Shown: positions 27,524-60,081 of the stretch, piece by piece
How the letters are laid out: every line of letters begins with the position of its first letter
How positions within the stretch are numbered: position 1 is the first letter of the stretch
From: a virus
Reading direction: 5' to 3' (one strand)
Length of the DNA: 64,000 nt
IMG/VR virus record: IMGVR_UViG_3300044614_001780
Program-made: the position numbers and the translations under genes
The notes under the pieces: model-generated
Told to the model about the DNA's origin: nothing
The model's database searches: none
The model's input: only the letters and a program-made list of their open reading frames with translations

Positions 27524-28213
27524 TTATTCTATAATAATTGAGGGGGCATCTGAGCATTCTGGGCAATTTTCACGAGTCCACCCAAGTGCTTCGGATACTG
27601 CAGGAAACTGACATGTAAAAATACACTTAACAGCATTTGCAATATCCATGTGTTCTTTTTGGGTGCCATGCCCAGAACGCAAATCAATATAATGGATCCA
27701 TGACCTTACCGAACCCGTCATATAGAGTCTTGTAGGAGTTGCTAGGGGCAATACAAACCTTGCACACTCCTTTGCAATTCCAGCATCAAGCATTTGTTGA
27801 TACAGATCCATTGAATGTTTAAAATGGTCCTGCATCAAAATTTGAAACTTTTGAACAATAAATGGATCAACATCATCAATACTGTTTTGACGATTTTTGT
27901 CGTCTTGACGACGAAGTTCTGGCACAGGAATAGAATTCCCAAGCAAAGAACTATCAGCATATCTTTGTGAAAATTCTTGATATGTAAATGAACGGTGGCG
28001 CAAAATTTGAGCTGCTATACCTCTTGTGGTATTAATCTCAACAGTCATTGAAGCTTGTTCAAAGATACTCCAATGCTGATGTTGAATACAGTATTTAAGG
28101 AGTCCAGAAAACTTTTCATTTTCTTGGTTTGCTGGATTTGAAACACGAGCACAGTATGCCATGTGCTTCTCTGCATCTGGTGTTACTGAAATAAGTTTAA
28201 CAAGTTGTGTCAT
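27524..28213 (-). CDS. thyX: Flavin-dependent thymidylate synthase
   Basis: [14 protein letters not shown] ThyX motif; ECARFVLP; TQKEH; ATG at 28213 preferred. Confidence 0.95.
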
Positions 28214-28214
28214 A

Positions 28215-28397
28215 TTAGTCTGGGTATCCATCATCATCTTCAAAAATTTCGTCGTAATCATGTAAACTTCTTGATTGTTTTTCAATTAAGTTTACGTTTT
28301 CTGTATAAGAATTTACATCAGAATAAACTTCTACCTTTAATGAGTCAACCAAAAGTTCTAAGTTTCTAATAATTAATTTTAATTTATCTTTGTCCAT
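28215..28397 (-). CDS. Conserved hypothetical protein
   Basis: [30 protein letters not shown]. Confidence 0.7.
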
Positions 28398-28418: not shown

Positions 28419-28453
28419 TTTTACATAAAAAAGGGGGGAAAGTCAATCCCCCC
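28419..28453 (-). terminator. Terminator hairpin overlapping a sigma70 promoter
   Basis: gggggga-TTGACT-ttcccccc-tttttt; TTGACT-17nt-TAAAAT. Confidence 0.7.
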
Positions 28454-28459
28454 AGAGCA

Positions 28460-28561
28460 TCAAACAACTTGTGGTTGCTTTGCCATATTCAGTTGTGCAT
28501 TGTGAAGGAGTTGTTCCTTCTTTGCTTTTTTCTTAAGATAACGAACGAAGTAAGTATTCAT
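28460..28561 (-). CDS. 33-aa basic peptide coupled to the DUF4278 gene
   Basis: MNTYFVRYLKKKAKKEQLLHNAQLNMAKQPQVV; ATGA overlap; GGAGG upstream. Confidence 0.6.
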   Translation of the reverse strand: MNTYFVRYLKKKAKKEQLLHNAQLNMAKQPQVV

Positions 28562-28695
28562 TTGTGCCCCTCCTTTACAAATTTAACACCACGATAGGTT
28601 TCGTTGTATTGTTGAGGTTGTTGCATCATCTGTTGTTGATATTCTAAACGCTTTTGCGTATCATATTCAACACCACGGTATACGACTTTAGACAT
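28558..28695 (-). CDS. DUF4278 microprotein (YRG motif, as in the IF17/GifB N terminus)
   Basis: MSKVVYRGVEYDTQKRLEYQQQMMQQPQQYNETYRGVKFVKEGHK; two YRGV motifs; AGGAG RBS. Confidence 0.8.
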   Translation of the reverse strand: MSKVVYRGVEYDTQKRLEYQQQMMQQPQQYNETYRGVKFVKEGHK

Positions 28696-28726
28696 TAGGG
28701 TTCTCCTTAGTTTTTAAGTTAAAGAG

Positions 28727-28768
28727 CGTTCCTTCAGTCGGCTTTTGCGTCCTCTAAGAGGATGAACG
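28727..28768 (-). ncRNA. Glutamine riboswitch aptamer (glnA/Downstream-peptide family), downstream copy
   Basis: CGTTCA-TCCTC-tta-GAGGA-CGCAAAAGCCGACT-GAAG-GAACG; lies 5' of a DUF4278 gene. Confidence 0.75.
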
Positions 28769-29025
28769 TTCCGTTCCGAGTCGGCTTACTTCCGTCCTAT
28801 TGAATTGTTTAGCACTTAAGTTTCACAACATCCTTTCGGAGTTCTAATAGCAATCGGTCTTCTTTTCTCTGGTCTACTACATCGTCGTTTTTAACGATGT
28901 CCATTAGTTCCCACGCTGCGTCACAACTTATTGTCACTTGATTAGATATAGCAAATTGTGTCGTAGAAATAAAAAGAAGTGGAACCCATGCTAAAAGCAA
29001 AAGTGCTTTAGTCATAGGATGAACG
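28767..29025 (-). ncRNA. Glutamine riboswitch aptamer, upstream copy, with an ORF in the P2 loop
   Basis: CGTTCA-TCCTAT [~213 nt] ATAGGA-CGGAAGTAAG-CCGACTCGG-AACG-GAACG. Confidence 0.65.
28809..29015 (-). CDS. 68-aa exported protein nested in the riboswitch
   Basis: Hydrophobic N terminus; two Cys (ISCDAAWELM..KLKC). Confidence 0.65.
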   Translation of the reverse strand: MTKALLLLAWVPLLFISTTQFAISNQVTISCDAAWELMDIVKNDDVVDQRKEDRLLLELRKDVVKLKC

Positions 29026-29073
29026 TTAGGGGATTATTTTACCCCTAGTTACCATATATATCCAAACACTTTT

Positions 29074-36124: not shown

Positions 36125-36218
36125 GTAAGACCATCAGGGAAATGGTGGTGATACTATTCCCCAGTCACCCTCAGACTGGGTATGAGAGACGTAATTTATA
36201 CACCCTAGAGGTCTCGGT
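36125..36218 (-). ncRNA. Structured psbA leader, probably PhotoRC-II motif
   Basis: Stems GAGAC/GTCTC, CCCAGTC/GACTGGG and a CCA..TGG hairpin in the 5' UTR of phage psbA; family name recalled, not searched. Confidence 0.6.
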
Positions 36219-36273
36219 TTAAGGGGTGTTGACAATGTTAAGATTTATGAGAAATCCGTAACATTTGTTTACC

Positions 36274-55252: not shown

Positions 55253-55292
55253 ATCATACTAAAAAAGAGGGGTATTGTAAACCCCTCTTTTT
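55253..55292 (-). terminator. Terminator hairpin containing the -35 of the glycosylation operon promoter
   Basis: agagggg-TTTACA-at-acccctc-tttttt; TTTACA-17-TATGAT. Confidence 0.7.
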
Positions 55293-55296
55293 ATAG

Positions 55297-55690
55297 TTTA
55301 TTTTTAACTGGAGATAATAACCAGGCGGGAGTTATCCCATCCGCACCACCAATTTTTTAGAGAAATTGGAAACTCAATCAGTTGTTCGATTTCTCGGCTC
55401 CACCACCTAGTTTTACTTAACTAGGAAAAGTTGAGTTAACTTTGCAAATTCTATGACTCCATAAAATACACAAAGGATTAAAACATCCCAAAGCTTAAGT
55501 TTAATTGCAAAAGGTACTGTAAATAAACCACCAATACATTTTATTAATAATCCATATTTAAAATCACCCCAAAGAAGAACAAAATATCCAACTATTAAAA
55601 GAAAATTTCCAATATACCTAAGAAGGTCTGCTTTAATCATGTATTAACCCAAGGCACTCCGACCAGTACTGTTAAAGTCCATCCGTGACT
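55297..55690 (-). ncRNA. manA/wcaG-like cyanophage structured RNA (repeated pseudoknot + UGGUG units) interrupted by an ORF
   Basis: Units GAG-tttccaattt-CTC..aaattgg-TGGTG and ACTT-ttcctagtt-AAGT..aactagg-TGGTG; 5' unit AGTCACGGATGGACT..TGGTCGG; upstream of a nucleotide-sugar epimerase. Confidence 0.55.
55413..55640 (-). CDS. 75-aa three-TM membrane protein
   Basis: LRYIGNFLLIVGYFVLLWG..PFAIKLKLWDV. Confidence 0.65.
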   Translation of the reverse strand: MIKADLLRYIGNFLLIVGYFVLLWGDFKYGLLIKCIGGLFTVPFAIKLKLWDVLILCVFYGVIEFAKLTQLFLVK

Positions 55691-60010: not shown

Positions 60011-60081
60011 AGCGGACAACGAGGATCGAACTCGTGATTTCAACTTGGAAGGATGACGTGTTACCGCTACACCATGTCCGC
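60011..60081 (-). tRNA. trnG: tRNA-Gly (UCC)
   Basis: GCGGACA acceptor, D arm TGGTGTAGCGGTAACAC, anticodon loop CTTCCAA, GTTCGAT T loop; CCA not encoded; TTGACA-18-TATAAT upstream. Confidence 0.93.

Follow-up and report, generated by a model that had tools for sequence, protein, structure and literature searches.

A candidate composite glutamine riboswitch in cyanophages whose first hairpin appears to close across a small gene

The window analysed here, a whole stretch of 64,000 nucleotides of viral DNA, probably contains a composite glutamine sensor whose first P2 hairpin closes across a real gene, with sensing and translation excluding one another and the gene exchanged as a cassette; we hold this reading with reasonable rather than strong confidence. 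The window belongs to a T4-like cyanophage (Kyanoviridae), and its nearest deposited phage is S-SRM01, at a locus identity of only ~77%. The switch, the nested gene and the downstream genes all lie on the minus strand (Table 1). An Rfam scan of the window reported PhotoRC-II, wcaG, tRNA and the Glutamine riboswitch. The first three, PhotoRC-II RNA at 36146-36240 (-; 82.4 bits), wcaG RNA at 55289-55377 (-; 59 bits) and the tRNA at 60011-60081 (-), are typical cyanophage RNA elements.

As we picture the transcription unit, the composite sensor, with two cores and a shared helix, would stand at its start and a terminator at its end. Relatives carry TTGACT-17/18-TATAAT at the position matching the window's promoter-like site and, if that site is used, the transcript likely starts ~12-15 nt 5' of the nested AUG. 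The predicted -10 box lies in the loop of an inverted repeat, AGGGG-UAAAAUAAU-CCCCU (29028-29046, -), which in relatives takes compensatory forms (AGGGG/CCCCT, AGAGG/CCTCT and GGGAG/CTCC) and could be an operator or a 5' RNA hairpin.

Table 1. Features of the switch, the nested gene and the downstream unit, in 5' to 3' order of the minus strand.
Feature	Positions	Strand	Basis or remark
Promoter-like TGGATA-17-TAAAAT	29036..29064	-	Consensus scan; function not implied
P1 5' strand CGUUC, first (putatively outer) glutamine core	29021..29025	-	Invariant in 100/100 relatives
P2a 5' arm UCCUAU, overlaps AUG	29014..29019	-	Partner 28800-28795; six of six pairs intact in 44/44 distinct homologues
Nested ORF-A, 68 codons + UAA; AUG 29015-29013	28809..29015	-	Open frame, dN/dS
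Local 5' hairpin, AUG paired with CAU of codons 9-10; competes with P2a	28982..29018 (approximate)	-	MFE fold, consensus fold
Central hairpin ACAUCGUU-AAAAAC-GACGAUGU, ORF-A codons 40-47	28876..28897 (approximate)	-	Compensatory double changes
Non-coding spacer, stop codon to 3' arm	28801..28808	-	0-9 nt, sequence variable among relatives
P2a 3' arm AUAGGA, non-coding	28795..28800	-	Invariant in family A; compensatory variants in other families
Junction CGGAAGUA, loop-E 5' strand	28787..28794	-	Agrees with Rfam consensus ACGGAAGUA
Shared-helix 5' strand AGCCGACU	28779..28786	-	Pairs with 28743-28736; covariation
GAACG, linker GAA, CGUUC: inner P1 hairpin or junction of two aptamers	28764..28776	-	Strands invariant
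P2b hairpin UCCUC-UUA-GAGGA, uninterrupted in the window	28750..28762	-	Rfam alignment; gene-bearing in many relatives
CGCAAA junction + shared-helix 3' strand AGCCGACU	28736..28749	-	Covariation
GAAG (loop-E 3' strand) + last GAACG (P1 3' strand)	28727..28735	-	Rfam alignment
Predicted hairpin CUCUUUA/UAAGGAG sequestering the Shine-Dalgarno site	28703..28726	-	MFE fold only
Putative controlled gene, 45-aa DUF4278-like protein	28558..28695	-	Pfam, PHROG
33-aa ORF overlapping the DUF4278 stop codon (ATGA)	28460..28561	-	Conserved in relatives
Intrinsic-terminator-like hairpin, then T run; unit end	28433..28453	-	Sequence scan

The nested arrangement recurs widely. Relatives of ORF-A, the nested gene of the window, are encoded by 243 IMG/VR contigs, the start of a second type of ORF is present in more than 119 contigs, and genes occupy both hairpins in many contigs. 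A sample of 120 phage contigs was anchored on the inter-core junction alone, blind to the loops, and parsed with no requirement for arm pairing. Among 85 newly parsed loci, the hairpins were both short in 40, and a gene lay in the second hairpin in 23, in the first in 20 and in both in 2; 45 of the 85 were thus nested, ~31 further nested loci were present in the same 120-contig sample, and about two thirds of the sample carried a nested gene in at least one hairpin. All four occupancy states were therefore seen. In the cultured phages DSL-LC02, DSL-LC03 and S-SRM01 the first core is intact and a gene of ~50 codons runs through the second hairpin, from CGUUCAUCUAUG... into ...AUAGACGCAAAAGCCGACUGA. 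Among 301 assemblies of the picocyanobacterial order, 2 also contained the inter-core junction, each at a phage-like locus with nested genes. These two loci (L415 and L416, in assemblies G263 and G245) lie on contigs of at least 119 kb and at least 190 kb, carry phage-type switches, and are probably phage DNA of infected cells that was binned with the host. When genome contigs were scanned with 16 bases of the junction, nearly all matches were due to chance and one, on a short phage-like contig, was real.

BLAST grouped 273 nested ORFs into three clusters. Family A, to which the window's gene belongs, occurs in the first hairpin only, as does family D, whose proteins end in ...IIGRK and whose stop is a UAA inside the core sequence CGCAAGUAAG. 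The large B/C cluster sits mostly in the second hairpin, with four unique members in the first. Family B ends in ...DAKAD at the UGA or UAA of GACUGAAGG, these five residues being encoded by conserved aptamer bases. This ending was seen in L001-L003, L014 and many other second-hairpin loci; in S-SRM01 the family B stop is lost (GACGGAAGG) and the ORF is five codons longer. In some family B variants (L111, L114, L121, L127, L134 and L194) the closing helix is 12-14 bp long (UCUAUGGAACAACU / AGUUGUUUCAUAGA) and the first four codons are buried. Profile comparisons of all family pairs aligned both cysteines, at probabilities of only 3-21%, which suggests that the nested families have a common two-cysteine layout and leaves their common ancestry unproven by sequence comparison.

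The nested gene behaves as a cassette, since near-identical phages differ by an exact swap of the hairpin top. Loci L225 and L210 have flanks that are ~98-99% identical over hundreds of bases on both sides; between CGUUCAUCC and GGACGCAAG, where the first hairpin reaches its top, one locus has a short loop and the other a 67-codon gene, and this is the only difference. Two further loci, L206 and L009, are 99.7% identical downstream and unrelated upstream, which places their breakpoint at the switch. In such exchange, recombination would take place in the conserved core sequences to either side of the hairpin. The same observations, namely presence or absence differing among near-identical phages, one ORF family found in either hairpin, and four of four occupancy states in existence, could also mean that the P2 loop, which is dispensable for ligand binding (PMC6698751), merely tolerates foreign DNA, and that a small gene rides the early promoter with no selected coupling to the sensor. 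We consider this unlikely, though it is the most serious of the rival explanations. A passive insert would be expected anywhere in the loop, whereas all nested ORF families start 3-7 nt into the 5' arm, their AUG having neither a spacer nor its own Shine-Dalgarno site. The stops of families B and D in the conserved core, with last residues (DAKAD, IIGRK) read from aptamer bases, and the long closing helix over the first codons of some variants likewise argue against a passive insert.

The preferred reading of a sensor closed across the gene depends on the identity of the split core. Its halves are CGUUCA-UCCUAU (29025-29014) and AUAGGA-CGGAAGUAAGCCGACUCGGAACG (28800-28772), and the P2 arms (29019-29014 and 28800-28795) stand 213 nt apart, as the first-pass annotation had described; the 68-aa ORF that it placed in this loop, with its ATG in the 5' arm, is also found there (ORF 29015-28809, AUG 29015-29013 against arm 29019-29014). 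The downstream aptamer agrees in sequence with the earlier description, and the core at 28770-28723 (-) matches RF01739 at 39.2 bits (gathering score 35 bits). Of the two glutamine aptamers claimed, this was the one that Rfam recognised in the native region: the split upstream core gave no match, its insert exceeding the model's window, and neither did the isolated 3' half, which at only 32 nt is too short to score. A relative (L136) supplies an uninterrupted equivalent of the first core, with the window's arms around a 9-nt loop, that scores 38.1 bits with RF01739 and so passes the Rfam threshold. The window's core halves are identical to it at 14/14 and 31/32 bases, in keeping with the proposal that a glutamine-riboswitch core is here interrupted in its P2 loop. 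The loop of this core (L136:10479-10534, -; family A arms) reads UUAAAAUCA, and its 3' end resembles the spacer that follows ORF-A; the L136 first core may be a deletion derivative of the nested form. The sequence CGTTCATCYTATG, the first 13 bases of the element, occurs once in the window as against 0.00 times expected from shuffles, and the match is not due to chance. With the Glutamine-II model (RF01704, cut-off 33 bits) the best score in the window was 21.3 bits, and first cores of relatives scored 24.6-28.8 bits.

The window shares with the glutamine-I riboswitch (RF01739; Synechocystis gifB/IF17 leader, PMC6212724) the CGUUCA, ACGGAAGUA and GAAGGAACG core, a covarying P2 hairpin, a DUF4278 (IF17-like) gene downstream and, for the downstream core, the Rfam match. 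It differs from that riboswitch in lying in phage DNA, in having one P2 hairpin that encloses a 68-codon gene, in an inter-core helix that replaces the local P3s, and in loop-E strands that are in different cores. The phages S-PM2 and P-TIM68 have uninterrupted two-core switches 5' of a DUF4278-like gene. In the glutamine-I structure glutamine makes contact with the C1:G59 pair and with G22, and the RNA can do without its hairpin loop; a glutamine-II aptamer made of two pieces still binds (PMC6698751). Because the contacts are to the first P1 pair and a junction G, because the loop is not needed and because a two-piece aptamer binds, a core split in its loop is structurally plausible. That two-piece aptamer resembles the proposed split core in assembling from separated strands, there with ligand present; its split was engineered in a type II linker, whereas the split seen here is natural, lies in a hairpin loop and has a gene between its sides. 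On our reading the split upstream core would bind glutamine.

Covariation of the P2 arms, which the first-pass annotation had named as a check, is present across the nested gene families and absent within family A. In the window's own family the P2a arms never vary (44/44 homologues), which is conservation without covariation, and the non-coding 3' arm is invariant beside a variable spacer. Outside family A the first hairpin has compensatory arm variants (UCCAAU/AUUGGA and UCUUAU/AUAAGA), and some forms are mismatched or bulged. For the second hairpin, loci were parsed without any arm criterion, and the P2b arms around its genes formed 4.56 of 5 pairs compared with 3.50 ± 0.17 after shuffling (maximum 4.11 in 5000 shuffles). 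Complementary forms of these arms include UCUAU/AUAGA, UCUCAU/AUGGGA, UCCC/GGGA, UCUUAU/AUAAGA and GAUUAUGGUU/GACCAUAAUC. Uninterrupted tandems showed two-sided changes in 3/3 counted P2a pairs and in 4/5 P2b pairs.

The two cores are further tied together by a shared helix. Their AGCCGACU segments change in concert (AGUCG/CGACU, AGCCGACG/CGCCGACU and GGACGG/CCGCCC), and in 36 uninterrupted switches the inter-core pair 45:92 was GC in 11, UA in 9, AU in 4 and unpaired in none. Local P3 hairpins were considered and rejected, their outer pairs being broken in 17/27 and 15/24 sequences, with the bases pairing between the cores instead. Because the covarying shared helix joins them, the cores cannot fold independently; on this covariation evidence they are one interlocked unit, which corrects the earlier description as a plain tandem riboswitch. 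Of the two loop-E strands, the first core has AGUA (28790-28787) and lacks GAAG, and the second has GAAG (28735-32) and lacks AGUA, so that the motif is complete only when the first CGUUC is paired to the last GAACG. This division of the strands favours an inner core (GAACG-linker-CGUUC) within an outer one that pairs the first CGUUC with the last GAACG, over two cores side by side. All four P1 strands are invariant and hence carry no covariation signal on the choice of P1 partner. A CG that the cores had been said to share at the GAACGTTC junction is specific to the window, where the linker is GAA; relatives usually have GAU, and the conserved strand at the core junction is the first GAACG (28776-28772). 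The shared CG was therefore rejected as a conserved feature. Tandem glutamine riboswitches, described as pseudo-cooperative, have been reported as 157 doublets (PMC9481103; PMC2864571). Like the switch described here they place two glutamine-type cores head to tail before one gene; they were treated as separate aptamers, whereas here a shared helix joins the cores.

These results bear on whether the upstream core is functional. Rfam reports the downstream core alone, and the single-sequence MFE fold does not close P2a, as would be expected if the insertion had destroyed the upstream core and left a dead remnant, with only the core at 28770-28723 sensing glutamine. This seems improbable to us, because at least 100 relatives keep both core halves and the non-coding 3' arm unchanged beside a variable spacer, because covariation is seen in the arms across families and also in the shared helix, which depends on the upstream half, and because the loop-E AGUA strand is present in the upstream half only.

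The insert itself has the marks of a gene, as had been claimed for it. The ORF-A frame is open in 104/104 relatives, and that of ORF-B in 130/131 copies. For ORF-A, pN/pS was 0.31 and the median dN/dS 0.26 in frame, as against 0.9-1.3 in the other two frames; dN/dS fell below 0.45 solely in the ORF frame, and third positions are the most variable. Gaps within ORF-A are multiples of three, and the spacer after its stop varies freely between 0 and 9 nt. By these measures ORF-A is a real protein-coding gene under purifying selection, and we infer that it is translated. Its AUG has no preceding Shine-Dalgarno site, and its stop codon lies 8 nt before the 3' arm. The family comprises 253 protein clusters, all of 63-72 aa and all unnamed. 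The N-terminus is hydrophobic (mean Kyte-Doolittle 2.47 over residues 4-17) and may be a signal peptide, and the two cysteines, C31 and C68, are both invariant. Neither ORF-A nor ORF-B matched a Pfam or PHROG family, the ESM Atlas offered no clue to the function of ORF-A, and deposited phages had no tblastn match to ORF-A or to the one ORF-B variant searched. An AlphaFold2 model of ORF-A from a 50-sequence alignment was of low confidence (pLDDT 55.6).

Conserved RNA helices run through ORF-A as well. Folding 44 ORF-A units to a consensus gave a local hairpin between the AUG and codons 9-10, a long-range helix and a central 8-bp hairpin. Pairs of the local 5' hairpin were 98.9% paired, one of them varying among AU, GU and GC, and the central hairpin showed compensatory double changes, sometimes at the cost of an amino-acid change. 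Synonymous entropy was 0.06 over codons 37-47 and near zero over codons 9-15, compared with 0.72 over codons 17-30. The 5' arm has alternative partners, local or in the distant 3' arm, each option being ~99% paired, and the AUG is paired in both of these structures. Such compensatory changes in internal helices, together with the suppressed synonymous variation at codons 9-15 and 37-47, would suit a purely structural insert, a long P2 extension with an incidental and untranslated ORF, and yet this is the least probable of the explanations we weighed, given frames kept open in nearly every ORF-A and ORF-B copy, dN/dS reduced in the ORF frame alone, frame-preserving indels, and three sequence-unrelated families that each keep an ORF with the two-cysteine layout.

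In the composite sensor that we favour, the bases needed for ligand binding would come from either flank of the gene, CGUUC from the 5' flank and ACGGAA with GAACG from the 3' flank. At every stage of translating ORF-A, from initiation through elongation to termination, a ribosome would hold the first core unfolded, and a folded first core would hide the AUG. With the AUG inside the 5' arm, ~13 nt from where the transcript probably starts, and the stop 8 nt short of the 3' arm, translation of ORF-A and folding of the first core would be mutually exclusive. Local pairing of the 5' arm with codons 6-11 would introduce a kinetic choice while the 3' half is still untranscribed. In cyanobacteria the glutamine switch turns IF17/DUF4278 genes on (PMC6212724), and opposite control of the two genes is plausible for that reason. 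By analogy with gifB, bound glutamine would turn on the downstream DUF4278-like, IF17-resembling gene and would disfavour re-initiation on ORF-A, so that glutamine could plausibly repress the inner gene while activating the outer one. We offer only tentatively the fuller proposal of a translation-gated switch with two outputs, in which glutamine would repress the nested gene and turn on the IF17-like gene, ribosomes would disable the sensor, and the cores would double as recombination sites for swapping two-cysteine proteins.

Riboswitch aptamers are usually treated as compact, contiguous and non-coding, and search tools and models assume as much. In the arrangement proposed here the ligand-binding core must assemble across a translated gene, placing sensing and translation in direct competition on one RNA, and in the sister families conserved core bases also encode the last residues of the protein. 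A leader-peptide ORF is known from mgtL in the Mg2+ leader of Salmonella mgtA, a sensor of ~17 codons placed in the expression platform. In leaders of this type, translation of a short ORF in a riboswitch-bearing leader competes with alternative RNA structures, as we propose for the nested gene; unlike them, the ORFs described here are 49-73 codons long, are located within the aptamer and evolve as proteins under purifying selection. A comparable case is that of the ORFs, homing endonuclease genes among them, that peripheral loops of group I introns carry (PMC3984707): there too a structured, functional RNA has a protein gene in a terminal loop that must be closed by a helix spanning the gene, and close relatives differ in whether the gene is present. 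In contrast to those ORFs, the nested genes show no endonuclease domain (Pfam and PHROG searches with ORF-A and ORF-B returned nothing) and are housed in a ligand-sensing RNA instead of a ribozyme; they also begin within the closing helix and, in some families, end within the conserved core.

Our literature search found mention of tandem glutamine riboswitches (PMC2864571, PMC9481103) and did not find a gene inside an aptamer or a shared helix; as far as that search shows, the gene-in-aptamer layout is an undescribed form of the glutamine-I riboswitch. Riboswitch censuses in phage and marine data would undercount, because standard scans miss split cores. If the "tandem" glutamine switches of cyanophages are one interlocked structure, the modelling of their dose response changes as well. 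The nested genes point to an unstudied family of small phage proteins that may be tied to the nitrogen status of the host, and the presence of a nested gene in the cultured phages DSL-LC02, DSL-LC03 and S-SRM01 makes the idea directly testable.

Downstream of the switch, the 45-aa protein of the window matches Pfam DUF4278 at 19.1 bits, below the cut-off of 25.3, and phrog_5049 at 1e-10; the DUF4278 scores of homologues in this position are 18.9-26.0 bits, and the earlier placement of the switch 5' of a DUF4278-like gene holds up. This gene has an AAGGAG, and the MFE fold predicts its sequestration. The basic 33-aa ORF that follows (MNTYFVRYLKKKAK...) had no family match and is conserved, and its ATGA overlap with the DUF4278 stop suggests translational coupling between the two genes. 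Further downstream of the unit lies a 253-aa ORF (27524-28285, -) with an RHR...S motif, which we take to be the thymidylate synthase ThyX. Relatives have an annotated thymidylate synthase at this position.
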